Source: Octopus sinensis (Eukaryota). Taken from it: a DNA stretch of 64,000 nt. Positions 2,119 through 63,360 of this stretch are shown one piece after another. The translations under genes and the position numbers were made by a program. The notes below the pieces were generated by a model. The model was given only the letters and a program-made list of their open reading frames with translations, was not told the DNA's origin and searched no databases. Position 1 is the first letter of the stretch. Each line of letters opens with the position of its first letter. Location: the NCBI RefSeq assembly GCF_006345805.1, contig NC_043000.1:138632001-138696000 (forward strand), in the 5' to 3' direction.

Positions 2119-2177
2119 ATTCCAGATCCTGGATTTCTGGCTTTGCATTTAGGAATGCTTTGCCTCATCAGTGGAAT
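2119..2177 (-). ncRNA. Type I hammerhead ribozyme motif (near-canonical)
   Basis: Minus strand: attcca CTGATGA ggc-aaa-gcatt-ccta-aatgc-aaa-gcc a GAAA tcc-a-gga TC tggaat; 6-bp helix I, intact core, AUC cleavage triplet. Confidence 0.8.
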
Positions 2178-2439
2178 ATACACAAAGAGTAACATAAATG
2201 CACACATATACATATATACATACAACATACAAATACTTACATATACGAATGTATACATAAATATATATATGCACGTATGCAAGATGACCAGTTTAAATTG
2301 CCCGCTTCGTAACTCCATCATGCGATATGGTTAAAACATCACCACAGTAAATACAGTGACGAAATAAATTTAAATTTATATAAATACATATGGAGAGAGA
2401 GAGAGAGAGGATGGAGTTTTTCAATGGACATGACATATG

Positions 2440-3370
2440 AGGATTCAGGTTTTAAGTTGAATGACCTGCTCAAATGTATGTACTGCACTCCCTCTGTCAA
2501 TTAGACATTACCTGTGCAGCCAGTACTGGCAGATGGATTTAATAAAGAAAACTCAAAGGTTAAACCAAAATGGAATTTACATATACATACATGCGTACAT
2601 ACATACATGCACGCATGCATCACACTTTGAAGGCTATGTGTTTGCAATTCAGGAACAGGAGATTACCACAAATTACCTGGTGAACCAGCGAGAGAGTGAT
2701 GCTTTTCTAATCCTAAGGTGCAACCACATGTGTAGGCTATGTCATGTTCTGTGGGAGACATTATGTATATGATTAAAAACTGTCCTAACATGTTGTCATG
2801 GTACTACCTCCCTCTGCAGCACGATGATGTTGCTAGAACAATTTACAATGCCATCCACAAAAAAGACTGTCCTGAAATAAACTTAGAAAATCCTTCTGTT
2901 ATAGAATACATTCATAAACACCAACTCAAGGAATACCGGTGGAATATTCCTATCAAATCTTCTGTCAAATTTAAGCATAACAGGCTGTATTGGGACAGAG
3001 GGGTAAAGGTGTGTACCATCATAGAAGACAGCTGTCCTGCAGATATAACTATCTCTTTGAAAATCAAAACAGGACAACTGCTTTGAAACCTCCAGCTTCT
3101 ATATCCAGACTATGAATTCATATTCATACTAATAGTAATTGGATCTCTAGGTTTTGTTAGTAAATGCTTAAAGGAGAATCTGGATAAACTGAGATTTTCA
3201 GAAAGAGAAATCTAACTGGCTTATTCATACATTACAGGTGCAATCTGTGAGTGGAATGGTAAAAATATGTATGACTTTTCTCAAGTACCAAATGTGAATT
3301 TCTCTGTGTTAACTACATTTGTATCTTTGTTGGAAACCAGTTCCCTCCTCAGTGGAAGATTAATAATAAT
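2440..3370 (+). mobile_element. Decayed non-LTR retrotransposon 3' part with zinc knuckle and restriction-like endonuclease (R4/Dong-like)
   Basis: FEGYVFAIQEQEITTNYL, CRLC, YYLPLQHDDVAR (RHD-like), WNIPIK..KHNR..WDR..KVCTIIEDSCPAD, LQLLYPDYEF..IVIGSLG; ends in (TAA)n; stops and frameshifts. Confidence 0.8.
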
Positions 3371-3384
3371 CAAAAAATAGAAGC

Positions 3385-3460
3385 ACCATACATGAATTCT
3401 CATTTGTACCTATCATCAGAGGTGCATTAGTCTGTGTGCCAACAGATTTGCACAAAAGCC
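3385..3460 (+). mobile_element. Second short REL-endonuclease LINE fragment
   Basis: HEFSFVPIIRGALVCVPTDL parallels the YEF..IVIGSLG motif of the upstream element. Confidence 0.45.
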
Positions 3461-3711
3461 AAGCAGTGCAGCATGTCGTTTCCAAATTTCTGGCCGAATG
3501 AATTGCATCATGGTGCTGTTTATCTCACAGACAGTGCCCAACTGATCCTACTATACTGTGTAGTCGACAAAAGCAAAAACAACCAATGCACATGTGCAAA
3601 ATAAAAAGTATAAAATGGTGACAATTTACCCATCACACCATATATATATATATATACATATATAAAATTAGGGATGACTATCTACTTTTGTAATGTTTGT
3701 GTATATGTATA

Positions 3712-4115
3712 GGTGCAGGAGTGGCCGTGTGGTAAGTAGCTTGTTTACCAACCACATGGTTCCGGGTTCAGTCCTACTGCGTGGCACCTTGGGCAAGTGT
3801 CTTCTACTATAGCCTCAGGCCGACCAAAGCCTTGTGAGTGGATTTGGTAGACAGAAACTGAAAGAAGCCCGTCGTGTATATGTATATATATATATGCGTG
3901 TGTGTGTTTGTGTCTGTGTTTGTCCCCCTAGCATTGCTTGACAACCGATGCTGGTGTGTTTATGTCCCTGTTACTTCGCGGTTCGGCAAAAGAGACCGAT
4001 AGAATAAGTACTGGGCTTACAAAAGAATAAGTCCCGGGGTCGAGTTGCTCGATTAAAAGGCGGTGCTCCAGCATGGCCGCAGTCAAATGACTGAAACAAG
4101 TAAAAGAGTAAAAGA
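3712..4115 (+). mobile_element. tRNA-derived SINE family A, full length
   Basis: Box A/B-like head (gtggccgtgtggtaag...ggttcagtcc), ccttgggcaagtg core, internal (TA)n(TG)n, (gtaaaaga)n tail; more than 15 copies in window. Confidence 0.9.
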
Positions 4116-5924
4116 GAGAGAGAGTATGTTGTACATGTGTGCATGTATATTTGTGTGTGTGGATAAATACACATACACACACATGCACACACGCCCACAC
4201 ACGCATAGTTTAATTATGTGAATGTATTTGCAAATTGGGAACAAAAATTCCATGTTAGTATCTTTAATTCGTTAACTGTTGCTGACAATGATATGCACCT
4301 GAATATAATTGATACTTGTTGCCCAAAATAATTTTCCATCAGTAATTGTAAGTAATTCTCTCTCTCACTTTCTGTCTGTCTGTCTCTCTCTCTGTCTATC
4401 TGTCTAGCTTTCTAGCTAGCTATCAGTCTATCTGTTTGTCTGCCTGTCTCTTTATCCGTCTTATTGCTTGTCTGTCTGTCTGTCTGTCTGTCTGACTTCT
4501 TTCACTCCCACTTGAATATGTAAGTAAACACTTTGTGTTGCCAATAATCAACTGCAGCTACCCATGTTGTTTTAGAGTTCATATTGATGACAGGACCTAG
4601 CTATTATTATTATTACTATGGCTGGGTTCCAATCTAGGCCACAGCAACAAAGTCCACTCACCACAATTCTTGGTCCAACATCATTACCTCAAGGTTTTGG
4701 ATACATTCCAGGCCAGCGTCTGCAGTCAAGTTGTCAACGTAAACATGACAACATTTTCTTCTTCTTACATCACCATGAAGTGGGTTCCACAAGTCTAAAT
4801 TGGCTGCTTCCAGTACAGGGTGGCACACACAGTGACCAGATAGTCACAGCCATCTTTCCCTAATCTCCTTGCTAACTTTCTGTAAGACTCCATAAAAGTA
4901 TTCCTTTGTCATATGTTGCTGGCATTTCACATTTAGAGCCATTTGTAGCATCCTTGTGTAGCATCCCTCTAGCCTGTTTGATAATTTCTTTGCCAGTCTA
5001 TTGCAAAGCAACTAAACAGCATACTCAAATACATCCAATTTCGAAGAGAATCTAATTCCATCAATTTTAAATTCGAAAATACTTAACTAGGGCACTATTA
5101 ATTGACCTGTAGACTATAAAAGTTAACTTTAAGAGAATATATACCAATTGGTGACAGAATCAAAAAGCTTTCTATGATATATCTTTGTGTGTATCCGTGT
5201 TGTGTGTGTGCTACTTCAACTCATTTCAAATTTAGATACCACTTACATATGACAACTTTCTGGATACAAATATTGACACATCATAGTCTAAATTCTCATG
5301 GGATTCTGAAAAGAAAAATATCTGTTAGAATTTTATATACACAAACAGGCATATGTGCACTTGTGGTTTTGTGTCTGTAATGTTATGAATGTCAATACAT
5401 GTAATTGAATCTTAAAATATTCAAAACATTAATTGTGGGAGCACTCAACATATTTAAGAAGATCCCATATATTTTATCATAATGACATATTTCAAAGTGA
5501 CAATAATACCTGAATCAAAGACCATTGTCGAGTCTTTGTAACATCAGCTGAAGTCTAATTAGCTCCAATGCATTTTAGATCTGCAAAGGTCTGTTGTAAT
5601 GAATTTGTTGACGTTATCTCTTTGCAAATCATTATTTTGTGCAGACTTCCATATTTTTTTTTTTCACAAACACCTATTAAAACCACTCCCACACAACTAG
5701 AGTCAACCATTCAAACACAGAGCCAGATATTTCTTCTATAGCTAATTTGATGGTAATATGTCATGCTACTACAATTTGATAACCTTAGAAGCACTTACTT
5801 TCTGAATGTCATTTTCATGGTGGGAGTGAGCTAATGTATGACACAACCATTTGATAGCTATAAACAAACGATTTCTGCAGGCTGTTAAACAAGAAATTGC
5901 AGAGCCTTCATTTGTCATATATAT

Positions 5925-6400
5925 CATCATCATCATCATCATCATCGTCGTCGTCATCGTCGTCGTCATCGACAATTTGACTGAGGTCTGGCGAACCAGA
6001 TGGCTGCACCACACTCCAATCTGATCTGGCAGAGTTTCTACAACTGGATGCCCTTCCTAATGTCAACCACTCCAAGTGTGTAGTGGGTGCTTTTACGTGC
6101 CACCTGCACAGGAGCCAGTCAGGCGGTACTGGTAACGGCCATGCTCAAATGGTGCTTTTTATGTGCCACTCGCACAGGAACCAGTCCTGTGGTACTGGCA
6201 ACGACCTCGCTCAAATGTTTTTTTTTCCCGTGCCACCAACACAAGTGCCAGTAAGGCGACGTGGATAACAATCACGCTCAAATGGTGTCTTTTACGTGTC
6301 ATCGGCACAGAGGCTAGCTTGTTGCTCTGGCAACGATCTCACTCATATAGTAATCTTAGCAATCCACTAGCACGGATGCCAGTCATCGATTTCGATTGTA
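5925..6400 (-). mobile_element. RTE 3' tail (family C) with gtgcc-ggt-ggcac subrepeats
   Basis: Reverse complement of family C tail, (CAT)n start. Confidence 0.8.
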
Positions 6401-6834
6401 TATATATATATATATATACACATGTATGATGTATGTATGTTATGGTGTATGCTATTAAGAATGTTGTAGAGTACAGTATAAAGCTAATCTCATCTACCTT
6501 CAGATTTTACCCTGTGCTATTCAGTAGTAGTATTATATGTACTCCCAGGCTTGTGTTTGGACATCTGTCAACTAAATTCAGGACATGACAGACAGAGAGA
6601 ATGCTCTTGAAGCTGAGACTTTGAACTTACAGAGACAATATTTACATGCCGCATGAGAAAACACAACTAAATCTCATAATGCAGGGAAACGGTTACATAA
6701 TCAAGTACCTGCTTGCCTGGAGAACTATGTTGTGTAGAAACTAACGTAGTGATTGAAAAATAAATGTCCAACTGTACTCCTTGTTGACTCCAAATTTTTA
6801 AAATTATGTATGTTTATATATATATATATACAGG

Positions 6835-7580
6835 AAATTGTTTCTCAAATGCCCTGGTGGCTCATAAGAGGTAGTAGATAATTTCTGCTACCTGGGGGAC
6901 CAAATTAGTTAAGGGACAGAATGTACAGAGAATGCAATAGCTAAAGTAAGAATAGGATTGAAGAAATTCAGAGAAATTTTACCTTTGTTGATTATGAAAG
7001 TTTTCTCTCTCCAAGTGAAAGCAAGATTGTATGATACATGTATACAGAAAGAAATCTTACTTGAAAAAGAGATGAGGGCACTGAATGCAGAAAAAATACA
7101 AAGGTTAGAGAGGAATGAGGCTAGAATGCTCAGCTGAATGTGTAATGTAAGTGTACATGTTTGAGAGAGTGCTAATGCATTGATAAAGATGATAGGCATA
7201 AGAGGAATTAGATGCAGTGTGCATGAGAGAAAACTACACTGCTTTGGTCATATGATGCAGGTGGATGCTGACAGCTCCATAAAGAAGTACCAATCTCTCA
7301 AAGTAGATGGAACACATAGAAGAGGCAAACCCAGGAAGATATGGGAGGAAGTACTGAGGGACGACCTCAGGATGCTGAAAATTTCAGATGAGATAACAAA
7401 GGACAAATTATCTGGTACTTTGTTGTACGCAAGAAGACCTATACTCCACAGCAGAAGTGTAAATCCACTGCCCCTGGGGAAGGAGAATAGCCTGGAAGAG
7501 TAGTGCCATGCCAAATCAGAATGGAGCCAGCTCTAGTCAAACTATCCAAACCATGTCAGCATGGGTAATGGTCATTAAAT
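6835..7580 (+). mobile_element. Decayed RTE LINE, RT C-terminal region
   Basis: EVVDNFCYLGDQI, KFREILPLL, VKARLYDTCI, RLERNEARML, GIRGIRCSVHERKLHCFGHMM, RRGKPRKIWEEV; stops present. Confidence 0.85.
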
Positions 7581-7639
7581 ATATATATATATATACAAAC
7601 ACATGCATACATACATGCATACATGCATACATTTATATA

Positions 7640-7985
7640 TCATCATCATCATTTAACGTCTGTTGTCCTTGCTGGTATGGGCTGGATGGTTTGACAGTAC
7701 TGGCATGCTAGAAGGCTGCACCACACTCCATTCTCATCTGGCATGGTTTTATATGGATGCCCTTCTTCACTTCAACTACTCTGCTTTTATGTGCCATTTG
7801 CATGACACAAGGGTGTGTTTACATGCCACCACCATGGGTGCCAATTTGCATAAGACTGGTAACTGCCATGACTGTGATTTTGCTTGGCTTGATGGGTCTT
7901 CTTTTCAAAGGTCTTAGTCATTGCCTCCACGAGGCCCAACACTCGAAAGGAACTCAGACACTTTGTCTCTGTGAGACCAAATGCT
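7640..7985 (-). mobile_element. Diverged RTE tail fragment (family C)
   Basis: catcatcatttaacgtc...ggatgcccttc...gaggcccaacactcgaaagg. Confidence 0.65.
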
Positions 7986-7989
7986 GAAT

Positions 7990-8925: not shown

Positions 8926-9599
8926 ATAAGAACGTATGTATATACATATTTACAAACCTACATACACACCAATGGACACATACATTAATACAAACATATA
9001 TATATAAAACAACTTAATAACACTGTAGTCATTCAATCACAACAAACAGAATATACAAACACACATAAATATATGTATATTTGCACGTAGCATATAAAAA
9101 GAATAGGAGAAAAATTACTCAATGTATGGTATAGGCTTTACTAGTATTTATTGAGGTGATGTTGTTTCACAATAATGTATGAGTTATATGAATTCTCAAT
9201 CCATCAAGTTGACATTATTGGCCTATAAGGAAAAATGCTTTAATCTAAGACAGCACCACCACTAACTCTTTCACTGATTAAGACAGGCCAAACAGGCTAA
9301 ACTTAAAGATAAAAAATTAATTAATGAAAATGTTTCCACGAAAATTCACAGAATGATATACATTTTTTTTTTAATATTAGGAGACAACTATTTCAAATTT
9401 TCCACACAATAGTAAGTCTTGACATATATCTTAAATTTTAGCCTGATATTTCCCTTCTATTTCTTAATATGCCATATATCAGCTGGGTTCCACTAGTTTG
9501 GGAAAAAAATTCCAGTGTGACTGAAGATGGTTGAAAGCTTGAAATTTGTTTTACTTTGCATGAAGGCAATAGTAATAATCTTGTCACTTATATTTAATA

Positions 9600-10400
9600 T
9601 ATTATTTGTCCAGGTCAAAATATTAAGTTTTCAAGCTGCACTTTACTGAGAATATTACTGTGGCTTTTATATGCCTTTGTCTTTTATTGTTGCCTATGAT
9701 ATTTCGTTTAATTGCATTTGCCTTTCATTGTAGTGTCAGGAAATTTGCTATCCTCAGGTTTGCATTTTTTGAACCTTTAAATCAAATTCCTTCAAAATGG
9801 AAATTAATGTCCTTTAACCGTAAATGTTATGCCCATTTGCTGTTGGATATGGTGAGTCATTAATTTCTGAGCCATCCTACCCTAATGGATCTTGTTTTAT
9901 TTTTCATGTGTGTAGGATGTTCAAAATCTATGCTCCCTTATTTTTGAAAGTTCTTTTACATTTTTTTTAACCCAAGGGCAATTTTCATAAAATAATAATG
10001 ACTTTCATGCATTCATTATAATGTTAATATCGGTCTTGGTTGTGGTGGTGCATATTTTACCAATTTATAGAGCTTTCACATGAAGCCCTTTATAATGGAA
10101 GAGTCTTCTACAAGATTAATTTTGGTGAATCTGCCTTGAATTTAGCTCTGATGCTGTTAACATAGTTGGTAATGACAGTGCTGGATTTCCAATGTGCCTG
10201 ACTTTTGTGCTTATAGAAGTTAAAATACAATTGCTGATTATCTCCAGTTTGGTCTCTGGTGAGTCTATGTCTTAGATTATCTGTAATGGTCTTTGTAATC
10301 CTTTAATTTTGTGTGTAGTCTACACAGGTTGATGCGATTTCCAGAATGTGCTATGTTTAAGAGTGTTGCTAGGTCTTTCAATTTTGAACTTTTTTACATT
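9600..10400 (-). pseudogene. Possible highly decayed Penelope-like RT/GIY-YIG region
   Basis: Minus-strand scraps LYFNFYKH..HWKSS and KRTFK..REH resemble PLE motifs; lies next to a hammerhead-bearing element; weak. Confidence 0.3.
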
Positions 10401-10484
10401 CTAATCTAATATTATCTGTTGAACCTAAGGCTAAGCATTTAAAAGAAATTATGTACACCCAGTGTGAAGGCTATAAAGTTAATC

Positions 10485-10680
10485 CAAACAAGAAAGCACA
10501 AAAAAACACAACAACGCGAGGACGTGGAACAAATATAGTATTATTGGACGCTCAGGAAAGAAGGAAAGAAAGAGGGTTTAACGTTTTGAGCGGAGCTCTT
10601 CGTCAGTAACATAGGAGGACAGATCCAGAGAAGGGAAGACAGAGGAAAAAAAAATCGCCAACGGTACACACGCGGTCACA
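10485..10680 (-). mobile_element. Penelope-like short element with minimal hammerhead motif (10576-10610)
   Basis: Minus: gtta CTGACGA a gagc tcc gctc AAAA cg TT aaac, then cgtccaataa and a T-rich tail; G12 is mutated. Confidence 0.7.
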
Positions 10681-11595: not shown

Positions 11596-11633
<38 letters not shown>

Positions 11634-14685: not shown

Positions 14686-16220
14686 TTTAGTGGATGGTAT
14701 GTATGATATTATGATGCTTTATGCACAAGATATCTTTTGCATAAATTTATTACAAATTTCCAGCTTCACTTTTCAGCTGGTGTAAAGAGATTGGTAGCAG
14801 GAGGAATTTGTAGGGGGGGGGGACTGATAAAGGATATATACAATGTAGGGTTCGGAGAAAGAAAACTGGTAGGAAAAAACACTGGTCGGCTGGGAGAAGA
14901 GGGCACATACTGTAGGTTTTGGAGAAGAGGGAACACATTATAGACTGATTTAAGGTACTGAATATCCTAGGTCCTAAGTCACAGATGACATGCCTTTTGA
15001 CCATATGTCACTTTGATCAGAGCTAGGGGATAAAAGCAACAACTTACTGAGAGCTATGCATATTTAGTGATTGAAAAGTTACATGTCTGGTTACTCATAC
15101 AGAGGAGTGATAATAGCAGAATACAAATTACTGGACTCTAAGGTGGTTGTCCAGTAATGTAAGAATTGGTCATCTTTTATCTCATAATTGTGAAGCAAAT
15201 GAATATAAGTAAAGACTAAGTATAAGAGACAAGGTACATACTAGTGTTTGAAGTGACAATCAGAAATGTAGAAGCAGCTGTCTCACCAGTTTTTAAAATA
15301 TTTTTTTATAATGACATTCTCTAAAGTGGATGTTCACACAAAGTGAAATAATTACAGAATATAGTTAAGAAAAAAAAATGTGTCAATGTAATTAGTTTAA
15401 TATAAGACTGCAAAGAGTAAAAACAAAATTAGTTATGCAAATTATTGCAATTTATTAGAGAGTAATAATCTGAACCCAAATTAATTTGAAACTTTTGTAA
15501 ATTTAGAGTAACTTTCTCATGTGTTGAGAGAATATTTAATAAATTTGTAGGAAGTATTCTTTTGTTAATGATAAATGTATTTTGAGAAACAATAATTGAA
15601 AACTAAAATAAAACTAAATTTTTGTGTTAGATGGGAAAGAAATAAGGAAATCAAAGTAATTATTAAACATATCAATGAGGAAATTATCACTGAAGAAAGA
15701 ATTTAACCTAAAGGTAAAAACTATTGTAACAGCAGATGAAAGAGGAAATATTAGTGTGCTTACAATGAAAATGATGTATAACTTTATTTAATGGATAGTT
15801 CCAAGTAATTATTAATTTCCTATCACTGTTTTACACGCAACAATGGATTTGTAAAACATTTAGATTCTCTCATTGTTGCTTCTTTTTTAAACGACAAAAA
15901 AAAGTATTAATTTTGATGTTAGAATTTTGGAATCTTGATTTATAATTAAATACTTTTGATTAATTTTCTTGAGAACGAGAACTGCATTTTGATAAATGTT
16001 TTGTACTTATAAGACAACAAATAGTCAACAAATAGCATGGCCTCTGTGCAAGGACGGCACACAAATTCACGAAGTGTTTCACATTTCTGAATAAAACAAT
16101 GAGAGAGCCTTTAAGTGATCATTCACTCTTTTTGAAAGAGCAATAAAATTTGTCTCCTGAATGCACACTTATCACTTAGAAAAAGATAAGGGGAACAACT
16201 ACCTGGGATTATATTGAATA

Positions 16221-18729: not shown

Positions 18730-18905
18730 CAAGAAAAACAAAAGACAAAGGCAGGTGTATGAACAACAAACAGGTGTATTAGTTTTGACACTGGGGAAGG
18801 TGAGAAGGTTTTTTACATTTCGAGCCTACCCTCTTCAACAGAAAGGAACACGAGGAAATAAACAGAGACAGAATACAAAATAAACTTGTGGATGTAGTGG
18901 TCAAT
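18730..18905 (-). mobile_element. Penelope-like short element with variant hammerhead (18809-18845)
   Basis: Minus: cttt CTGTTGA a gag ggtagg ctc GAAA tg TA aaaa; same layout as 10485-10680. Confidence 0.6.
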
Positions 18906-27498: not shown

Positions 27499-28595
27499 AT
27501 ATTGGGTCATCCCATGAATACTGCAGTTTTTTTTTTCAATTGCATGAACTAAAAGTTGGAGGAGAACGGGATAATCTACCTGCATCAACCTGCTATAAAA
27601 GCAAGTAGTAATTTTACCTTGTCCTTATACTTGGTTCAAGTTTTGAAGAGTACTGTTTGATTTTAACTGTTATTTTTTCAAAGCTTTAATGGAAGTGATA
27701 AAGGAATATATTCAGCATATTTTGCTTTATGAGTTTAATAAAGGCAACAATGCAACAGAAAGTGCAAGGAATATTAATGCAGGATATGAGGATCAAACAA
27801 TAAGCGTAAGCCAGTGTCAACAGTGGTTCCAGAAATTCCAAGCCAGAAACTACAGCCTAGAAGACGAGCCTCATCCTGGAAGATCTGTAGAGATTTATGA
27901 GGACATCTTGCAAGCCCTGGTGGAACGAAATCCCATTGTAACTGTTGAGGAACTAGCAGAGAAGCTTGGATTTTGTCATTCAACTATTCATCGACATCCG
28001 CACAGTGAGAAAATTGGGTCAATGGTTTCTTCACAAACTTTTCGAGTCTAATCACATGCAGAGAGTGAATGAGTGCTCATCTTTGCTCTCATGTCTCACG
28101 AATGAATCTTTTTTGGACCGAATCATGATTGTTGATGAGAAATGGGTTCTCTGTATAAATGTCAAATGCTGAAGACTGTGGGTAGAGAAAAGAGAAACAC
28201 TGGCACGCCAGGCTAAAGGATTTCACCCATGTAAGGTGTTATCTATTTGGTGGGATAAGGAAGAGTTAGTCCATTTTGCACTTTTAAACCAAATGATAAG
28301 AAAGGAGATCTACTGTAAGCAGCTCGAGTGGCTTAAGTCAGCACTAGAAGCAAAATGACCATCTTTGGTTTGAAGACGAAAGGTGCTCTTCCATCAGGAT
28401 AATGCTCAGCCACATGCAGCGAGGATGACATTCCAAAAGCTGGAACAGTTTGATTGGGAGACTATGCCCCACCCACCATATTTGCCTGACATTGCCCCAT
28501 CTGATTATCATTTATTCTGCAGTCTTCAAAATTATTTGGACAGAAAATATATGAATTCTGTAGATGACATCAGAACAGTGGTGGAGGAGTTTTTA
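27499..28595 (+). pseudogene. Mariner (DD34D, Mos1/Hsmar1-like) transposon, frameshifted transposase, 3' end lost
   Basis: 5' TIR ta|ttgggtcatcccatgaata; MEVIKEYIQHILLYEFNKG..LEDEPHPGR, WFLHKL (WVPHEL), DEKW, HQDNAQPH, PYLPDIAPSDYHLF across three ORFs. Confidence 0.92.
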
Positions 28596-28760
28596 TAAAT
28601 CATATATTAGCACTTGCATTGATGGATTCTTCAGATTGAAGAATCCATAAATGCAAGTGCTGATATATGATTTATAAAAACATGTGACATTTCAATAAAA
28701 ATCTGTAAATATAAAACCATCTAAACCCAATGCCTGATTCATTGATCTATTCCTGATGTA
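28589..28760. mobile_element. Fold-back Penelope-like fragment (45-bp arm palindrome) related to 63130-63360
   Basis: Arms 28589-28633 and 28637-28681 with 2 mismatches; shares tttataaaaacatgtgacat...aaaatctgtaa.tataaaaccatc with the 63.2-kb element. Confidence 0.75.
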
Positions 28761-28771
28761 TTTATATAGAT

Positions 28772-28935
28772 TGGAGTGGTTGGCATTAGGAAGGGCATCC
28801 AGCCGTGGAAACCTTGCCATATCAAATCAGAACCTGGTGAAGCCCCGACCCCAGCTTACCAGTCTTCAGTCAAACCATCCAACCCATGCCAGCATAGAAA
28901 TCTGACATTAAACGATGATGAGAATGATGGTGATG
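28772..28935 (+). mobile_element. RTE terminus (family C)
   Basis: gagtggttggcattaggaagggcatccagcc...gacattaaacgatgatg. Confidence 0.8.
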
Positions 28936-28959
28936 ATATATATATATATATATATATAA

Positions 28960-29105
28960 ACAATTGCAACGTGGAAGGTGTTTATAAGCCATTTAAGAAA
29001 CACACAAAAACCGTTAGAGTCACTTCAACATTTAAATTTAATTTGTCAAAATATTTTTGTTGCTTTGAGACCGTGACCTGTTCACTGACAAAACTCCATG
29101 CTGCT
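28960..29105 (-). mobile_element. Short element with G3:C8-type hammerhead-like motif (29042-29092)
   Basis: Minus: tttgtca GTGAACA g gtcac ggtctcaaa gcaac AAA aatatt T tgacaaa; 7-bp helix I, palindromic helix III. Confidence 0.55.
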
Positions 29106-29135
29106 TCTTTCTCTCTCTCTCTCTTTCTTTATATA

Positions 29136-29172
<37 letters not shown>

Positions 29173-29633
29173 GAGTGAGTAGTATAAGAGATAGATTTGG
29201 AGCATTTTGTGGCTATCACAGAAGGCTCTGCTTACTGACTCAACTAACAGTCCACATAGTAATCTAGTACAGAGAAGCAGGAAGTAGAATGTCCATGCAG
29301 CTGGAATCCAGTAGATCTGATCAATGAAATTATTTCATGTGGAGTATATAAGCCATAAAAAGTCAAAAGGTATGAGAGGTGAATATATTTAATTAACCAC
29401 TTGACATCCTTAGGATTATGGCCATTTCACAATCTTCTTTATATAGAACTAATTTCTGTGTGGAATAAATTATGCTTACAGGTTTGCATTTATATGCATA
29501 CTTGACATTACACAATACAATTTTATATTCACTGACCAATGCAAGCTAGCTCATCAGGTCACCAGAATATCACAATTACACCAATGATTCAATTCAAAGT
29601 ATATATGCAAAATATTCTTTCTCTCTCTCTCTC

Positions 29634-29680
<47 letters not shown>

Positions 29681-29683
<3 letters not shown>

Positions 29684-29905
29684 CAAAATAAGCAACAAGA
29701 ATGACTCTGGTAATTTGGTACGATCGTTTTGTACTACATCATTTTATTAAATGTTGTAATACTTACAACATTTAATAAAATGATGTAGTACGAAATGATC
29801 GTACCAAATTACCAGAGTCATTTTGATTATAATCACCCCACGGATTTATATGGATAACTCCATACAGAATTCTGGTGCATCTAAATTAAGTACCATATTC
29901 ATTTG
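29681..29905. mobile_element. Fold-back Penelope-like fragment (60-bp arm palindrome)
   Basis: Arms 29700-29759 and 29763-29822 with 2 mismatches; carry the GAAA-cgatcg-TA hammerhead 3' half and the ttgcttattttgatt tail shared with 36990. Confidence 0.75.
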
Positions 29906-29921
29906 AATCTATATATATATA

Positions 29922-30103
29922 CTTTATTTAAAGCAGCAGAAAATTCAACAAAACCTATTACTCTGAGTTTCCCGTTGCTGTTCATCGGACAGTTTTTGCT
30001 AGTTTTTGAACTGTCTGCTGCTTTAAATAAAGCATATTACTCTACCACTGGTATTTGAGTACTCTTTTTTTCCACCTTTTTTCACGTTTATGTGTTTACT
30101 CCA

Positions 30104-30104
<1 letters not shown>
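29922..30104. mobile_element. Fold-back short element with hammerhead-like motif (29955-29992, minus)
   Basis: 19-bp perfect IR 29922-29940/30014-30032; minus: ctgt CCGATGA acagcaacgg GAAA ctc-a-gag TA atag; flanked by (TA)n. Confidence 0.65.
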
Positions 30105-34274: not shown

Positions 34275-34599
34275 GTAGTCGTTACCATCATCATCATCGT
34301 CATCATCACCATTATCCTTTACTTTTATTTATTTTCTTTCTTCTTAATGCAAGCTTAATATATTTAATTATGCATAGAAATAGTTTGTATTGAATAGTGA
34401 AATCAATAGAATATGTAGACACAATCATCATCAGTCGTCGTCCTGCTGCAGCTGAAAGAGTTTTAAGAAAACCAAAGAAGAATAACAAAAAACAAAAAAA
34501 AAACAAAACAAGAAGTAAAAATAAAACGTATCTTGGAAGGGAAATATTCAAACAACAAACACAAACAGGTAACAACTGCAATATTACTGTTAACACTGA

Positions 34600-35392
34600 T
34601 GTTGCTGCTGCCATCTCTACCACTACTACTACTACGACGACGACGACGACGATGACGACTATGACTACTATGACTACTACGACGATGACTACTACAACTA
34701 CAACTACTACTACTAATACTACTACTACTACTACTTCTGCTGCTGTTGCTACTACTACCACTACTACTACCACTACTACTACGACGACGACGACTATGAC
34801 TATGACTACTATGACTACTACGACAACGACTACTACGACTACAACTACTACTACTACTACTACTACTTCTGCTGCTTCTGTTGCTACTACTACCACTACT
34901 ACTACTACTACAACTACGACGACGACGACTATGACTACTATGACTACTACTACGACTACTACTACTACTACTATTTCTGCTGCTTCTGTTGCTACTACTA
35001 CCACTACTACTACGACGACGACGACGACGACTATGACTATGACTACTATGACTACTACGACAACGACTACTACGACTACAACTACTACTACTACTACTAC
35101 TACTACTTCTGCTGCTTCTGTTGCTACTACTACCACTACTACTACGACGACGACGACGACGACGACTATGACTATGACTACTATGACTACTACGACAACG
35201 ACTACTACGACTACAACTACTACTACTACTACTACTACTTCTGCTGCTTCTGTTGCTACTACTACCACTACTACTACTACTACGACGACGACGACGACTA
35301 TGACTATGACTACTATGACTACTACGACAACGACTACTACGACTACAACTACTACTACTACTAAAACTTCTGCAGCTGCTACTACTACTGCT
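34600..35392. repeat. Higher-order trinucleotide repeat ((ACT)n/(ACG)n blocks, ~105-130-bp period)
   Basis: About six units delimited by tctgctgcttctgttgct. Confidence 0.92.
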
Positions 35393-35591
35393 TGTCGGGG
35401 GGAAAAAAACCACAACTCAAGTTTTGTCATGTTCAAGAAGACTGATAACAAATTGTAGCCTGATGAGGCATATAACTGATCTAATCATTCCAGTAGATTA
35501 GTCCCTGGTATTCTTGTAAACCCTAATTAATGAGAAACAAAAGTTTGACCCTGTTAAGATAAGATTTCAGTATGTAGAGAAAATAAACTTT

Positions 35592-36884: not shown

Positions 36885-37090
36885 TTGTGCAGCTGATGAT
36901 TGCCCGGCATTTAAATTGATGTAATGACTGCATTGTTCAATTAAATAGAGCTGCTTGAAACGGTCGTACAGAATCACTTCTTGATATCCTGTTGCTTATT
37001 TTGATTTTATTCACCTTACTTTGAACTGGGCAGATAATACTGTACTGACTTTGTGCTTCAACTTAAGTACCTAATTCAACTGAATTTCAG

Positions 37091-37124: not shown

Positions 37125-37295
37125 TGGATTTTACTCACAAGGTATTGGAATCTTATATGTATACCATTCTGGCTAAATAATTGATCTACAAATGCAATAT
37201 CCCTGCATATCTCACATCTGTTCTCATTCCCCCACTTCTCTCTCTATTTCGTATCTTATCTAAATTAATTATCGCTTAACCCTTTTCTCATATCA

Positions 37296-37341
37296 TTTCC
37301 GATGAAGGGATATAATAACTATCCTGGAAACAGCTGTAAGA
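37296..37341 (+). ncRNA. Minimal hammerhead-like motif (U4C core variant)
   Basis: ttt CCGATGA a gggata taataac tatcct g GAAA cagctg TA aga; palindromic helix III acagctgt; helix I weak. Confidence 0.6.
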
Positions 37342-37720
37342 CCTTCTATTCATAGATGTTCTAAAATCTTCACAGCCTTCGTTTTTTATCTCATTCTAAT
37401 AAAAAATTTCTTATATATACACATGCTGATATATAACCTACGTTGGACTCCTTATTTGCATAATCACCAAATCAGGAGCTTAACTATGGTCTATCCATAG
37501 CACTTACTCAGCATTACCTGACATCTTTGGGTCTTAATGACACTATTACCTCTCATAACCTCCCCGCTCTCTCTCTCTATATATATATACATACATACAT
37601 ATATATATATATGTATGTATGCATGTATACATGCACACATGTATGCACACATGCACGCATGCACACACAAATATGTTGATATATATATACATACATATAT
37701 ATATATATATACACACATAT

Positions 37721-48702: not shown

Positions 48703-49004
48703 TGGGCCTATGTTGTTCAGAATCTAATGAAGAATGTTTCAAATTATATGTATAAAAAGTCATTACAGAACAATTTCCTCTTATTTTTCCAACAGGAGCA
48801 ATGAAGATGCCTTTCCAGGTTACTTAACTTGCTAGAAATACAACCAGGCTATCTTACAAAAAAAAGATGGAAAGTGCCTTGAGCACTTTTGACAGAGTTG
48901 TAGGGATGACATCCTGACACCATATGGCTTCACTTGAGCATTTAAACCTTGCAGAACACTTATTAGACTACAATTAGTTTCTTTCAGTTAAGAAATAGAA
49001 TGGA

Positions 49005-49307
49005 AGGGCAGAGAGAGAGGGAGAGAGAGGGGAGGAGAGGGAGAGGGGGAGAGAGAGAGAGAAGAAGAAGAAGAAGAAGAAGACGAAGGAGATGAAGGAG
49101 AAGACGAAGAAAACGAAGAAGAAGAAGAAGAAGAAGACGAAGGAGAAGAAGAAGAAGAAGAAGAAGAAGAAGAAGAAGAAGAAGAAGAAGAAGACGAAGA
49201 AGAAGAAGACGAAGAAGAAGAAGAAGAAGAAGAAGAAGAAGAAGACGAAGAAGAAGAAGACGAGAAGAAGAAGAAGAAGAAGAAGAAGAAGAAGAAGAAG
49301 AAGAAGA
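49005..49307. repeat. (GA)n plus (GAA)n polypurine microsatellite
   Basis: Direct reading. Confidence 0.97.
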
Positions 49308-49467
49308 TGTCAGTATTGATATTTTATTTACTGACACTGGAAAGAAAATCTCAGCAGGATTTGAACCAAGTGTGCAGAGATCTAGAACGAATGCAACACA
49401 CCATTCGATGCTTTAGTGACTAGAAACTAAGATGAGGAGGTCACAGATGGTATTCTTTTGAAGATAA

Positions 49468-52662: not shown

Positions 52663-53350
52663 GTGGAGGTGCAATGGCCCAGTAGTTAGGGCAGCGGACT
52701 CGCAGTCATAAGAATGCGGTTTCGATTCCCAGACCGAGCATTGTCAGTGTTTATTGAGCAAAAAACACCTAAGCTCCACGAGGCTCCAGCGAGGCGGGAT
52801 GAACCCCACTGTACTCTTTCACCACAACTTTCTCTCACTCTTTCTTCCTACTTCTGCCACAAAGCAGAGGAACCATGCCGTAACCCACTATGGAGTGGTA
52901 AACTTTCAGACCCTGGCGTAGATTGCGAATCCACTGTACCCCAGGATGGTTCAGCTCTCCACTCGTTAAAAGCCACCGTTTAAGGAATGAGGATAACAAC
53001 GTAGCTTTCGTGCCCATGCAACCGCCAGTCTATCGTGTGTGGTGGGTGGATCTTCACGTTGCCATATGCATTCTTAGTAGCTTAGAGTAGGCTCAAATTA
53101 GAGATTATTCTTTGTGGCAAATGGCGTGAGTCCTGATTAGAAGAAGAAGAAGAAGAAGAAGAAGAAGAAGAAGAAGAAGAAGAAGAAAAAGAAGAAGAAG
53201 AAGACGAGGAGAGGAGGAAAAAGAAGAAGAGGAGGAGGAGGAAGAAGAAGAAGAAGAAGAAGAGGAGGAGGAAGAAGAAGAAGAGAGGAGGAGGAGGAAG
53301 AAGAAGAACAAGAAAAAGAAGAGGAGGAGGAGGAAGAAGAAGAAGAAGAA
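52663..53350 (+). mobile_element. SINE family E with expanded (GAA)n/(GAG)n tail
   Basis: Colinear with 44131-44610. Confidence 0.85.
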
Positions 53351-56520: not shown

Positions 56521-57529
56521 GAGGTCAATAGGAATGCAATAGAAATGATGAAAGGAGGAGGAGAGACTTAGAAGATGTGCTATGCAACTTACTAATTCCA
56601 TAGAACAAAGGCCATATATTTTTCTTCTGGTGTGTGTGTGTATTTGTGTTTGAGAGGTTCCCCTATAGATTCTATCACTGAAATTGTTGCAGTCATTCAG
56701 TCAACATGAAGCTGCAGTGGAAGGTACTATTTGACCAAGGGTACAGTATCATGAAATCCAGAAGCACATCACTGCAATTAAAAATTCTTACCCACAATTA
56801 TAATTACATGTTTTTTTTTAAAATTTATTATCTATAATGAGTTTTAAAATTTAATACTGATAGCTTCGTCTGTTTATAGAGATGGATACAGAGAAATCAG
56901 AATACTCTTTATTTAGTAGTCCATTTTGCTGAAAGAAAAAGACTAAATCTAATATTGCATCATGTCCAATCATGTGTAACCAGATGAGGCTTAATTAGGA
57001 TAAAGAAATTTCAATGAACTAAGTTTTTGTAAAAATGTATCTTGTATCAGCAAATTGTCTACTTCAAATCACAACACATCATGTCAATTGAAACTTATTT
57101 AAAATAGTCTGGTTTAGTCTTCTGATTAAAGGAGAGCAAACTATAAGGTAGATTAATTCTCTGAAACCAAAACAATAATTTTCTAGAAACTTTAAGATAG
57201 CAAATTTAATAATCAACAATTTATGCGAACTTTCACACATATCACTTACCTAAGCATTGGGAATAATAGATTAATGATGGCTTGGGAAAAAAACCCCAGC
57301 AAATCTGAGCAGGGACCTTTTTATAAATTGTATTTGTATTTTGATCCTGCATTAGCAATACCAAGCTCCATTAAGGTATTTATAGCCTTTATATTTCATA
57401 TCGTATTTAGTAGATACCTGTTTTCTGTAATACTATCTGGATAATTCTGAAAAGTAATAAAGCAAGTGAAGTTTTTGGAGAAAAGCAAATAGGATCAGAA
57501 GAAAGAATGTTGCCTTTCTTATGTTTTAC

Positions 57530-58077
57530 TTCTAATTGCGAAGATCTGTTGAGGCAAGTGAAATCGAAATTGAATTCAAAATCGAACCACATCCGATGAC
57601 TGGCACCCATGCCAACCTCCTTTCATTGGACACTAAACTCTGCTTGTGAAGACCTGTTGGGGCAAGTGATATCGAAATTGAACAAAATTCAATGACTGGC
57701 ATCCAGTTGTTGCCAGTACCACTGGACTGACTCCTGTGCAGGTGGCAAGTAAAGAAACACCGTTTCGACCCTGTGCTTGAGGAGACCTATTGAGTCAAGT
57801 ATATAAACATCAAAAATCAATGGAAATTGTAGTTGTGATCCCTGTGCTGGTGGCACGTGAAAAGCACCATCCGAACGTGGCTGATGCCAGTGCCACTTTG
57901 ACTGCCTTCTGTGCCGGTGGCACGTAAAAAGCACCCACTACATTCACGGAGTGGTTGGCGTTAGGAAGGGTATCCAGCTGTAGAAACACTGCCAGATCAG
58001 ATTGGAGCCTGGTGCAGGCTTCTGGCTTCCCAACCCATGCTAGCATGGAAAATGGACGTTAAACGATGATGATGAAG
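57530..58077 (+). mobile_element. RTE 3' UTR (family C)
   Basis: Subrepeats and terminus with (GAT)n. Confidence 0.85.
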
Positions 58078-58354
58078 ATATATGTGGTTTTGAAGAAAAT
58101 TTGTTTGTGATGTTAGTTTAAAAATTTTTTATGAAATAAATAGGAAATTTTTATTTGTGTGTTTTAGAGCAATGTCAGTGAGAAGAGTTGTTACAAGTCT
58201 TGATGCAGGAGTGATTATTACTGGAAATAAATTCAACAATGATCAACCTTAAATAATTTTCCTATGATAATCTCTAAATTATCCTTTGCAATCTTGAAAT
58301 CTTCACCTGGTTAACAATTGCAAATAAAAGCATATTATACAAATAGAAGACATG

Positions 58355-58562
58355 ATTCATCATCATCATCATAATTGTCATCATAATTGTTTGATGTCCA
58401 CTTTTCTTGCTAGCATGGGTTGGACGGTTTGGGTGAGGACTGGTAAGCCAGGAGGCTGCACCAGGTTTTCGATCTGATCTAACAAGGTTTCTGCAGCTGG
58501 ATGCTCTTCCTAATGCCAACCACTCCGAGGGTACAGTGGGCGCCTTTTACATGCCACTGGCA
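58355..58562 (-). mobile_element. RTE terminus (family C)
   Basis: Reverse complement of the tail. Confidence 0.8.
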
Positions 58563-59453
58563 TGATTATACTTATACTGGTAACTGTAGTCCCTGTGAGC
58601 ATTTTTGTATAACTCTTCACTGACAGAATGATTAACACTGTGTTAACAGTTATATCCAGTCGAGTACAAGAATAATTTTTTCTTATATACCTTGTCGTAT
58701 TATAATTTGGATCCCATTTATTGCTATTCTGCTGACATATGTGGAGAATTTTATATTCTGTGGAAATTAATTGTTTGAAAATAACAAGGTTACATTATTG
58801 AAAATGAAATTTAAAATAAGAATTCATGAGATTGGAATATTCAAATACTTTAAAATTGAATATCAATCAATCCCAGAATGGAATTATTATAGATCAAGAG
58901 TTATAAATATCATCAATATCTACAATAGAAATAATGAAAGAAAAGCCACTGAGGGAAATGACAAGTTAATTGAAGATGGGAAAACTTAATTAAAAAGATT
59001 TGCCTCTCAGATAATGAGCATATCTAAACAGACTGATCCAGATGTATCATTTGATGTCTGTAGAATGAGAAATAATGGGAACATTCTAGAATAGAGATCC
59101 TGTTTGAAGCTAATAAAGCATTATCAAAGCTTAAACCCCAGTAAGGTTCCATATAATATCTAAAGTTAGGAAAAACCTTCTTATCTGGATATCATCAGCT
59201 ATTTGATGCTTGGGAGATGACTTGACACAATGTTGTTGTAACATGTTTATCAGAGGTAATATGAACAAGATAGTAGCAATTTATTAGACACCAAAAAAAT
59301 CTAGATCAAAGAACCTGCACTCACCAAAGCAGCTGATACTAGTATTTTAGTAGTTGATATCACTTTTGAGATATTCTATCTTTCAAGATTATCAGAATTA
59401 TTCTACAAACTTGACATCTCATCATTTGTATGAAACTTATATTATTATTGCTT

Positions 59454-59587
59454 GTGGCTGTGTGGTAAGTAGCTTGTTTACTAACCGCTGCATGGTACAT
59501 TGAGCAAGTGTCTTCTACTATAGCCTCGGGCCGACCAAAGCCTTGTGAATGAATTTGGCAGACGGAAGCTGAAAGAAGCCCGTTGTA

Positions 59588-59631
<44 letters not shown>

Positions 59632-59876
59632 TGTTTGTGTATATGTATATATATATGCATATGTGTGTATATGTTTGTGTGTCTACGTTTGTCCACCCAA
59701 CATTGCTTGACAACTGATACTGGTGTGTTTATGTCCCCGTAACTTAGTGGTTCAGCAAAAGAGACTGATAGAATAAGTACTAGGCTTACAAACAATAAGT
59801 CCTGGGGTTGATTTTCTCAAATAAAGGTGGGGCTCCAGCATGGCCACAGTCACATGATGGAAACAAGTAAAAGAGT
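59454..59876 (+). mobile_element. SINE family A
   Basis: Head partly deleted. Confidence 0.88.
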
Positions 59877-60650
59877 AACCCTCTCAGACCTGAGCCCTTG
59901 TATCTAACTTTACCATCTACCTGGGCTCCTGAAAAAAAAAATGTATACACAGCTCAAGAGTAATGATTGCAAGCAGAGAAACGGATAGAATCAGAAAAAA
60001 TTCAGAATATCATTAAAAGACCTATATTTCAACTACTGTATTTCTTCACCTAAATCACTACTTCCAGCACCACTTTCACTAATTTCACTGTTTGAATCAG
60101 TCTCATTGTCTCTGTAAGGGTAAACTCTTTGTCCAGAGAATAAATATCACCAATAATTTCCTCAACTGTAAGAGTCTAGGCCTTGCTCATTTACCAGACA
60201 AAGTGATGCATTCATCACATACTCATTTCATTGCAAAAGAAACCGTTTTTCAAAACAAAAACAAAGGTTAATAATTGCTATGGGGGATGCCATTCACAAT
60301 GAATAACAAACACACTTGACTACAAAGGTGAATGGTGACTGGTTGCCTATTTTTAATATTTATCTTGTTTTTCTATGTGTGTTGTTCATTACCACTTTAA
60401 CAACAATCCAGAAGAGACTATGTTTGGGTTATTCCCACTATACTGGAAACACAGTACGATAAGGTTGTTGGGTAAGCACAGAAAATGATGATCATCAAGT
60501 AAGTTAAAGTGAAATGGATTAGAGAATGGGTGCAGATATCATTCGAACAGAGGGAGGGGCTTCTGAGATTCTGAGAGATACATTATACAACTGAACATTC
60601 TTAGTGTTTGCCCTATATATAATAAAACTTTAGACAATAGTTTCAGAGAC

Positions 60651-61030
60651 GGCTGTGTGGTAAGTAGCTTGCTTACCAAACACATGGTTCCGGGTTCAGT
60701 CCCACTGCGTGGCATCTTGGGCAAGTGTCTTCTGCTATTGCCCCGGGCCAACCAATGCCTTGTGAGTGGATTTGGTAGACGGAAACTGAAAGAAACCTGT
60801 CGTATATATATTTATATATATGTATGTGTGTGTTTGTCCCACTAGCATTGCTTGACAACCGATGCTGGTGTGTTTATGTCCCCGTTACCTAGCGGTTCGG
60901 CAAAAAAGACCGATAGAATAAGTACTGGGCTTACAAAAAGAATAAGTCCCGGGGTCGAGTTGCTGGATTGAAGGCGGTGCTCCAGCATGGCCGCAGTCAA
61001 ATGACTGAAACAAGTAAAAGAGTAAAAGAG
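60651..61030 (+). mobile_element. SINE family A
   Basis: Near full length. Confidence 0.9.
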
Positions 61031-61052
61031 TATTTTATTTGCTTGTGATTAT

Positions 61053-61411
61053 CTTTTATTTGTTTCAGTTATTAGACTGTGGCCATGCTGGAACACTGCC
61101 TTGAAGAATTTTTAGTCAAATGTATTGACCCCAGTACTTTTATTTTTTAAACCTGGCACTTCATTGATCACTATTGCTGAACCACTAAGTTACAGGGGCA
61201 TAAACACCCCCCTCCACCTGTTGTCAAGTAGTGGTGAGGGATAAACACATACACACACATGACTGTTTTTTTTTCAGTTTCTGTCAACCACTTACAAGGC
61301 TTAGGTCAGCCTGAGGTTATAAGCGAGAGAAGACACTTAACCAAGATGCCACACTGTGGGACTGAACCTGGAACCATGTGGTTGAGAAACAAGCTTCTTA
61401 CCACACAACCA
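61053..61411 (-). mobile_element. Older SINE family A, inverted next to the previous copy
   Basis: tgtttcagttattagactgtggccatgctgg...cttaccacacaaccac. Confidence 0.8.
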
Positions 61412-61797
61412 CGATTAGTTTAAAGATTTTCAATTTGTTGGTAATATCCTTAGAATGCTTTGTATATAGAACACTATCTAAACCATTATATGATTTTCTC
61501 AACAACAGATTCAGAAATTGTAACTGCAAAGCTAAGAGGGGCCACTAGCAGCACTTATGTGTGACTTATTTCACTTTTGCTTACACACAGCACTTATCTA
61601 AAATAGAGTGATCGTTTTATAAATGACTAATTACTGGGAAAAAATTTAGCTAATTTGGTACTTGTTTTATGCTATTCAATGAATATAAAAAGAAATCTCT
61701 AAAAAGTCTTCCAGTCCCTCCTTATCGTCTATGATAGTTACTGGAGTGAAGGGGTGCAGAATTAAGTGTATTTATCAAATATTTATAACAAAATATA

Positions 61798-62178
61798 GGC
61801 GCAGGAGTGGCTGTGTGGTAAGTAGCTTGTTTACCAACCACATGGTTCCGGGTTCAGTCCCACTGCATGGCACCTGGGCCGTCCAAAGCCTTGTGAGTGG
61901 ATTTGGCAGACGGAAACTGAAAGAAGCCCGTCGTATATATGTATATATATGCGTTTGTGTGTCTGTGTTTGTCCCCCTAGCATTGCTTGACAACCGATGC
62001 TGGTGTGTTTATGTCCCCGTTACTTAATGGTTCGGCAAAAGAGACTGATAGAATAAGTACTGGGCTTACAAAAGAATAAGTCCCAGGGTCGAGTTGCTCG
62101 ACTAAAGGCGGTGCTCCAGCATGGCCGCAGTCAAATGACTGAAACAAGTAAAAGAGTGAAAGAGAGAGTAAGAGTAAA
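61798..62178 (+). mobile_element. SINE family A
   Basis: Full length with a small deletion. Confidence 0.9.
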
Positions 62179-63129
62179 ATACTAGAATAATATTTGAACT
62201 CAAAACATATGATCTATTAATCTAGTTCCTTATCCACTGATCCACTGCAGCAAGGAATCACATAATTGAATGCATTGAATGTTTTCTGCAGAATTTATAA
62301 AAAGCAAGAAATAAAGGAAAGAAATATTAATTGTGGAATGGTTCTATTCACAGACATAACAATGTATTAACATTTGTATTTTCAAAGGGCTGAATCTATT
62401 TTGGAAATTACTCAGAAAAAAATTATGAACCAGCATATATTTCTAATATAAGATCAATTTCATACAATGGATAGAAAGCTATACCTTTAAGATGCAAAGG
62501 TTTAAAAGAAAGTAATACAAAATTCCATTTCGTTTTACAACATTAATGAAAAATGGAGATAGCATACATAACAGTATTCAGAAGGAAGCCATCGTAGATT
62601 TATAAATTATCTATATTAAGCTGCAAGACAACAGCCAATGCAAAACATGATTTCATCATAAGATTATACTTCACATATTAGATTTTAATCAAAGAAATTG
62701 TAAAAGAAGAAATAACTGAAAAAAAGTACTAAAGTATGATAGGGTGATTAGAAAGATATGAGAACCCTAATTCTGGTTTGTAATAAAAATTAAATTTATT
62801 TCTGTCAAACTAAACTGAATACAATTTCTTTTTAAAAAAAAAAGTGATTTAGACATTTGAATTTGATCTTTACATGCATTATCTCTTACTGAATTGGTTT
62901 CAATGTTACATGATGTATGCTATGTCATGCATATATATATATATATATATGTATACATACGTACTTCTAATATACAGATAAAATTTTATTAAAAATTTTG
63001 TCAGTGGCCAGCATATGAAAAATACCTTTTAAGGTGAAAATTTTAATACAATTATAAATAAGGGGCAAAAAGAAAAATTTTCTTTGCCAATATACTAAAA
63101 AACAGATGCTAAATCATCTAACCACATAA

Positions 63130-63360
63130 AATATTTTCACTTATATTATTACACCATATATATATATATATATATATAAATATTTATATATTAGAAGGTT
63201 TGGAGATGATGCATAGGTATTATATATTAGAAGAAATAAGGTACTAAAAAATCTGGATGGTTTTATAGTTACAGATTTTTTTAATATGTCACATGTTTTT
63301 ATAAACCATACATTAACGCTTGCATCCACTCTAGTGGATTCTTCAGATTGAATTTTTGAG
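63130..63360 (-). mobile_element. Penelope-like short element with hammerhead-like motif (63311-63350)
   Basis: Minus: caat CTGAAGA atccac taga gtggat GCAA gcgt TA at; perfect 6-bp helix II; among (TA)n tracts. Confidence 0.6.

Follow-up and report, generated by a model that had tools for sequence, protein, structure and literature searches.

Minimal hammerhead ribozymes are known, in highly varied forms and by the thousand, from the ends of Penelope-like elements (PLEs). The hammerheads described by Cervera and de la Pena (2014, PMC4209133) have a short helix I, an extra nucleotide beside stem II and a palindromic helix III, they form many heterogeneous families per genome, mostly as single truncated copies with opposite-strand pairs, and some carry a U3-A8 core pair. 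The elements studied here, in a 64,000-nucleotide stretch of the Octopus sinensis genome (NC_043000.1, positions 138,632,001 to 138,696,000; the whole stretch is called the window), together with their relatives elsewhere in the genome, are alike in all these respects. However, U3-A8 is the only core change in the accessible part of that report, whereas here four others, namely U4C, A6U, A13C and G3-C8 (the swapped 3-8 pair), are each fixed in a family.

The carriers also resemble described elements. Hydra and Neptune/Nematis PLEs (Craig et al. 2021, PMC8557442) share with ours the clade marks, (TA)n targeting, the inverted 5'-truncated copy and the optional tail. Their tails measure 30-40 bp, against about 60-70 nt in the G3-C8 and 29955 families of this work, and the Hydra elements described there have canonical hammerheads, while a young Hydra-clade family found here has U4C. 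Natural core variants were reported by Perreault et al. (2011, PMC3088659), i.e. U3-A8 covariation, U4C in a viroid and A6C in a phage, with reduced activity, and the octopus genome likewise has U3-A8, U4C and a change at A6; those variants were rare single cases, and the main text of that paper, in its accessible part, names no G3-C8, A6U or A13C. The Poseidon PLE of the anole (Frangieh et al. 2024, PMC11167929) likewise combines a PLE hammerhead, an internal start of reverse transcription which explains the tail, and a partly active C3G/G8C form, but G3-C8 is a laboratory mutant there and a natural family state here. Non-LTR (long terminal repeat) retrozymes (PMC7229834; 10.64898/2026.07.22.740005) are also short, non-coding and PLE-related, with type I hammerheads. 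According to the accessible text they are tandem, form circles and have canonical hammerheads with tertiary contacts, in contrast with the dispersed stubs and minimal hammerheads of the octopus.

Hammerheads in PLE pseudo-long terminal repeats (pLTRs) are a known kind of element; the fixed core variants are new or little described. A natural G3-C8 was not found in our literature search, although supplements, figures and further work on PLE hammerhead variants may list one. A6U and A13C, sought less thoroughly, were not found in print either, and supplements and figures may list them. What the window adds is the presence of four fixed core changes side by side, links to open reading frames (ORFs) for three families, and U4C on a young autonomous element.

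Hammerhead families in the window

The consensus C3 U4 G5 A6 N7 G8 A9 / G12 A13 A14 A15.1 / U16.1 H17 was applied (PMC3088659). In the initial annotation, which was made from the sequence alone, one common layout had been assigned to eleven positions. Ten of these proved to be minimal type I hammerheads or halves of them, belonging to nine repeat families, which are named here by window position (28601 and 63311 are one family). The eleventh, 45269, had to be dropped, since its sole genome match is itself and GAAA is absent; it is likely a chance look-alike. The layout, mostly on the minus strand, is helix I, a 7-nt core, often one extra base, helix II, GAAA, a self-complementary helix III, UH and helix I again, with three helices around the core in the strand order I-II-III-I. 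In all nine families helix III is a palindrome able to pair between two copies. The helix sequences mostly differ between the loci, as annotated, and the families are many and unrelated. The element at 29790 is indeed a half, inverted and ending within stem II, while the core of an intact relative (L054) is canonical; 36957, which had also been taken for a half, is a whole hammerhead.

The full core consensus is present in the 2119, 29790 and 36957 families, and each of the other six has one fixed departure. Six cores had been listed as variants. CCGAUGA, CUGUUGA and GUGAACA are non-canonical, but CUGAUGA is canonical and so are CUGACGA and CUGAAGA, N7 being free; the A13C change, by which GCAA replaces GAAA in the 28601/63311 family, had been overlooked. 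The window copies of the 10576 and 29042 families are decayed, with AAAA at G12, and helix I of the 63306-63352 motif consists of 2 bp plus a bulge. The palindromes at 28589-28721, 29700-29822 and 29917-30104 are due to abutting inverted copies of PLE style. The coordinates are collected in Table 1.

Table 1. Hammerhead-bearing elements of the window and the young related family (window positions, except in the last row; ends marked ~ are approximate)
Feature	Position	Strand	Remarks
Whole type I hammerhead, older repeat family	2119-2177	-	canonical core CUGAUGA; helix III AUCC-A-GGAU; relatives L059 (87%), L050, L052
~205-nt element, fairly fixed 5' end	10475-10680	-	hammerhead at 10576-10610; core CCGACGA (U4C) in the family, CUGACGA and AAAA by decay in the window copy
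Putative 3' end (pLTR) of Neptune/Nematis-type PLE	~18730-~18890	-	hammerhead 18810-18845; core CUGUUGA (A6U)
Head-to-head inverted pair, 5'-truncated copies of 63311 (A13C) family	28589-28721	both	motifs 28600-28640 (-) and 28632-28670 (+); DNA palindrome
Tail-less copy of discrete ~205-nt G3-C8 element	28955-29105	-	hammerhead 29042-29092; core GUGAACA; helix III AAUAUU; U17; G12 decayed
Inverted pair truncated inside stem II	~29671-~29900	both	only GAAA-helix III halves, 29716-29734 (-) and 29788-29806 (+)
Putative 3' end of Hydra-type PLE, abutting inverted copy and tail	29917-30104	-	hammerhead 29955-29992; core CCGAUGA (U4C); helix III ACUC-A-GAGU
Repeat of variable 5' length	36887-~37090	+	whole hammerhead 36887-36974; canonical core; ~60-nt stem II
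Part of repeat with variable 5' length	37250-37420	+	hammerhead 37295-37342; core CCGAUGA (U4C); helix III ACAGCUGU
Putative 3' end of Neptune/Nematis-type PLE	63250-63372	-	hammerhead-like motif 63306-63352; core CUGAAGA; GCAA for GAAA (A13C); helix III AGCGCU
CUGAUGA beside 5-bp stem, without GAAA	45269-45306	-	single-copy
Young Hydra-clade PLE family	G000:C5:61735463-61736062 (L276, L364); L263-L292		U4C hammerhead; open frames

Four hammerhead families lie inside 1.6 kb of the window (28589-30104), and hammerhead-bearing families are nested in each other's (TA)n flanks, both in this region and at other loci (e.g. L021, L046, L099, L169, L258). A decayed Hydra-like reverse transcriptase (RT) remnant was found just downstream of the 10576 element (9939-10268, minus strand, best tblastn E 4e-8); it looks like an older, separate element.

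Core variants within the families

The genome searched comprises 2.72 Gb in 13,516 contigs. Seven DNA searches were run against it, one for each of seven window families, and 40 candidates were scored in each. All 40 matched in every case, and the first-look candidates numbered 832-2,679 in six families and 3,519 in the 36957 family. Relatives of 2119 and 29790 were present among the genome loci fetched (numbered L). Matches of the PF00078 (RT) genome search were excluded from the later counts. The cores were counted in the other top 24-29 matches of each family, the window copy being left out; such top matches lean to the query.

C4, the U4C state, was found in 22 of 29 matches of the 29955 family, 27 of 29 of the 10576 family and 22 of 24 of the 37296 family. 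U6 was present in all 29 matches of the 18809 family, C13 in 28 of 29 of the 63311 family and GUGAACA in 28 of 29 of the 29042 family, while N7 in the 36957 family was G in 13, U in 10, A in 5 and C in 1 of 29. The initial annotation had proposed to check whether the variants are fixed in their families, and by the majority of these matches none of the four reverts to the canonical state. The variant cores U4C, A6U, A13C and G3-C8 are the majority state of their families and not decay.

Two hand counts extend to copies outside these samples. Among the 10576-family copies found incidentally C4 was present in 9 of 15, the remainder being mostly one diverged subfamily; relatives of the 18809 clade not picked by its own query (73-84% identity) had U6 in 16 of 18 and A6 in none, whereas any of the four bases occurs at N7. 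For the G3-C8 ribozyme, one form of 45 nt has 409 exact copies in the genome, the reversed control none. Since U4C creates a CpG, CCGACGA decays to the CUGACGA seen in the window, i.e. toward the canonical core. Single descriptor matches with other cores and strong helices (U4G, U3-A8 with U7, another U4C lineage) were noticed at L177:1970, L030:1219, L037:995 and L149:1945.

Probable Penelope-like carriers

The Penelope origin suggested earlier is supported by RT and GIY-YIG remnants directly upstream of the hammerhead in three families, and in the others by their tails, their inverted 5' parts and their insertion at (TA)n. Clade labels are given here from motifs read by eye and not from a tree. 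In the long copies of the 63311 family (L243, L244, L260) and in the 18809 family (L252) RT, a CX4CxxC linker and GIY-YIG precede the hammerhead on the same strand, the Pfam GIY-YIG match in ORF-linked copies being below cut-off (E 0.009). Linkers of this type (CX2-5CxxC) mark Neptune and Nematis PLEs (PMC8557442). The 29955 end lies 1.05 kb downstream of a Hydra-like ORF in L256, with an inverted copy on the far side. PLE coding remnants upstream of the hammerhead end, the search for which had been recommended as a test, were thus found for the 63311, 18809 and 29955 families and not for the other six (2119, 10576, 29042, 29790, 36957, 37296), to which no ORF could be tied in the fetched loci.

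A very young PLE near these loci shows the RWK, DKT and CxCX5C marks. RWK, DKT and the CxCX5C linker are the marks of the Hydra clade, whose elements are short and have a (TA)n target (PMC8557442), and the young family has all of these properties. Among its 150 scored matches 48 are 100% identical (rounded) over 200 amino acids, its frames are open up to 717 codons, the layout in L364 is pLTR-tail-ORF-pLTR, and C4 was found in the hammerhead at all 30 loci. By sequence, U4C is carried by a recently active, protein-coding element. The homologues of its ORF had no informative names. U3-A8 hammerheads (core UUGAAAA, helix III ACCGGU) end two Neptune-type ORFs (L255:~4990-5050 and L258:~5650-5680); U3-A8 families are common (3 of 18 matches in random DNA), and L326 contains two identical inverted copies 4.7 kb apart.

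The marks of PLE insertion are common to the families: an optional tail, an abutting inverted copy, 5' truncation, and AT-rich or (TA)n flanks. Inverted partners were found at 28 of 59, 13 of 29 and 11 of 24 loci. The families are likely for the most part pLTR ends of truncated PLEs, three of them ORF-linked and the rest probably PLE ends as well.

Abundance in the genome

Comparison of a relaxed descriptor with shuffled sequence, another check proposed at the outset, gave little separation in the window alone and a clear one at larger scale. The loose descriptor gave 4 matches in the window (shuffle mean 0.95, maximum 4), which 2 of 20 shuffles equalled; for canonical cores it gave 1 match, and 0 in the 20 shuffles. 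Over 800 kb of the genome, taken as 80 evenly spaced 10-kb stretches, an intermediate descriptor found 18 matches against 0-1 per shuffle and 1 in total over ten shuffles. In 1.23 Mb of family-enriched loci 145 matches in 33 clusters were obtained, against 3-4 in shuffles, and in some 30 clusters unrelated helices surround the same core.

By core, the 18 matches were 9 canonical, 3 A6U, 3 U3-A8, 1 G3-C8, 1 A13G and 1 U4A. Scaled from the 800 kb, a rough figure of 60,000 intact-looking motifs is obtained for the genome, about half of them non-canonical; canonical descriptors undercount, as 9 of the 18 intact motifs show. The nine window families have 29 copies in the same 800 kb. The "dense radiation" which had been seen in the window is not supported, since its 2 intact matches compare with about 1.4 expected per 64 kb, i.e. 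no higher density than that of the genome is shown; its higher family-copy count is partly due to the queries having been taken from it.

The remark that strict searches miss such hammerheads is correct, and has been in print since 2014. With a strict descriptor there were no matches in the window or in shuffles and 3 in 400 kb; it was too strict for decayed copies. The Rfam scan of the window gave 263 matches, and the 150 best contained no hammerhead family, only microsatellite-driven microRNA matches and a U6-like one, so among these the window motifs do not reach the gathering threshold for the type I hammerhead. The RF00163 genome search gave 7 other loci among 74 scored candidates.

The G3-C8 element

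In the 29042 family 44 of 87 alignments start 57-62 nt before the cut, and none of 12 non-inverted copies shares upstream sequence. Among 26 copies selected on the ribozyme only, an abutting inversion was present in 14 and the full tail in 15. The G3-C8 element, about 205 nt long, thus behaves like a separate unit. It is non-coding in 59 loci, whereas the three ORF-linked families are coding, and no ORF-bearing master was found among these 59. It is likely a non-autonomous unit or a solo pLTR, copied back to the transcription start of an RNA with a fixed 5' end, as the internal RT start reported for the anole PLE would suggest (PMC11167929). The 5' starts of the 10576 family are clustered too.

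Direct partners of G3-C8 were present at 2 of 59 loci, both belonging to one local duplication; the 1,282-bp direct pair L335/L336 is a local duplication. In the full element (L126:1499-1705; window 28955-29105) 6 bp can form between the two ends, since GAGAUG stands at its start and CAUCUC close to its end. This pairing is contained in the minimum free energy fold of the whole element, which is no better than that of shuffles (z -0.37).

Proposed mechanism and alternatives

PLE hammerheads cleave weakly, as dimers (PMC4209133). In the anole PLE hammerhead cleavage requires the element's protein, insertion does not require cleavage, and engineered C3G/G8C partly rescues cleavage (PMC11167929). 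By analogy, the minimal hammerheads of the nine families are predicted to cut weakly and as dimers, likely with the protein of the element. Helix III sequences ACGU and AAUAUU are too short to close in one molecule, and in 5 of the 7 families that were folded, pairing two molecules as a dimer gave greater stability than two separate monomers.

The explanation we consider probable is that of PLE-end families, whose minimal hammerheads have loosely constrained cores with lineage-specific tolerated changes. The PLE protein would reverse-transcribe uncleaved RNA from an internal start, nick AT-rich DNA and usually stop early, which would scatter short hammerhead-bearing stubs. Since transposition is seemingly independent of cleavage, the core would be under loose constraint, and the helices with the palindromic helix III would be retained while the core drifts. 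Each lineage could then fix a change that it tolerates; G3-C8 and U3-A8 preserve the 3-8 pair, and U4C is slow but viable. Signs of constraint are that positions 3 and 8 remain paired, as C-G, U-A or G-C, that U4C recurs in four separate families despite its fast-decaying CpG, and that N7 drifts while U6 holds in the 18809 clade. In the G3-C8 family G3 occurs together with U17, by which a G3-C17 mispair would be avoided (as PMC3884650 suggests).

It is conceivable, and deserves some credence, that some variant cores, A13C above all and possibly A6U, have lost catalysis, became fixed through a master copy and hitchhike because insertion is independent of cleavage, the helices being inherited or kept as a protein-binding shape. 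Hammerhead mutants left the insertion of the anole PLE in vitro unaffected and no RNA ends were found at its cut site (PMC11167929), A6C is slow (PMC3088659), helix I of the A13C family measures 2 bp, and copies do not begin at the cut more often than expected. Against such passive fixation stand G3-C8, which takes two changes restoring the 3-8 pair plus U17 avoiding the mispair, the recurrence of U4C, and the A6U clade, where U6, the helices and ACGU are kept across subfamilies 73-89% alike and only N7 drifts. The opposite extreme, that all the fixed variants (G3-C8, U4C, A6U and A13C) cut in vivo as protein-assisted dimers, we hold to be unlikely. If it were true, the PLE protein would relax the "invariant" core, the genome would be a natural mutational scan, and published censuses would overlook a large share of animal hammerheads.

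The initial annotation regarded the elements in general as non-autonomous and retrozyme-like, and a radiation of non-autonomous retrozymes which make circular RNAs with borrowed PLE proteins would agree with the fixed ends of the G3-C8 element, its missing ORF link and common upstream sequence, the clustered 5' starts of the G3-C8 and 10576 families, and the proposal that animal retrozymes derive from PLE pLTRs (10.64898/2026.07.22.740005). We find this quite improbable. Tandem arrangement and canonical hammerheads characterise non-LTR retrozymes (PMC7229834), but here the copies are dispersed, with 1-2 direct-repeat partners within 1.5 kb per 24-59 loci and no head-to-tail tandem of a 170-400-nt unit. 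Several families are 5'-truncated ends of coding PLEs, three of them continuing into coding sequence, and in no G3-C8 copy of the fetched loci does the 3' end run straight into a 5' end. In a weak test, on contigs of sequencing runs not recorded as RNA, only opposite-strand joints of G3-C8 and no circular one were listed. Given the fixed 5' ends, the label may fit G3-C8 and possibly the element at 10576. As for chance look-alikes in AT-rich, repeat-rich DNA, the 45269 motif is one in all likelihood and the loose-descriptor result in the window would allow more, but the 800-kb shuffles, the unrelated helices on the same core and the fixed position at PLE ends make this reading next to impossible; for the ten loci it is already refuted.

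Several observations weigh against loosely constrained PLE ends as the general explanation. Cofolding put the dimeric hammerhead at the energy minimum in only 1 of 7 families, and for the two ACGU families there was no gain over monomers. In the variant families 3 of 31 copies start at the predicted cut, about 2.3 being expected by chance (hand sum), and 0 of 11 for G3-C8. The corresponding figure for canonical families is 3 of 8, two of the three being one duplication; both counts omit the 29955 family, the query of which reaches into (TA)n. A looser tally that excluded G3-C8 had placed 5 of 25 starts at 0..+2, which a stricter rerun did not sustain. Six families have no ORF, as given above; in L255 an ORF does follow a 36957 copy but ends in a different hammerhead, and the Pfam search did not recognise the young Hydra ORF. 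Moreover, the family counts come from the top 24-29 matches, with their leaning toward the query, and A13C is known from one family with a weak helix I. Contigs of sequencing runs matched to the G3-C8 unit and to the end of the young Hydra element listed no core change and gave no usable ends.

The six variant-core families are likely a natural test panel for the core tolerance of hammerhead RNA. They bear on the question why PLEs keep hammerheads at all, when cleavage is weak in vitro and dispensable for insertion in one reconstituted system. Sister families and the young open-frame element provide matched natural substrates with a cognate protein, by which it could be asked whether cleavage or the fold is under selection, and the young Hydra-clade PLE is a good candidate for in vitro work.

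Other features of the window

The window is rich in A+T and in microsatellites. It contains no outstanding long host ORF, and the tRNA scan found none in it. A U6 small nuclear RNA-like sequence at 15992-16088 (plus strand) scored 41.5 bits against a gathering score of 44 and is likely a pseudogene. A 134-codon frame at 27647-28051 (plus strand) may resemble the N-terminus of a mariner transposase. Long tandem tracts of trinucleotide type at 34500-35400, 48980-49400 and 53100-53350 give rise to spurious Thr-, Glu- or Ser-rich frames.

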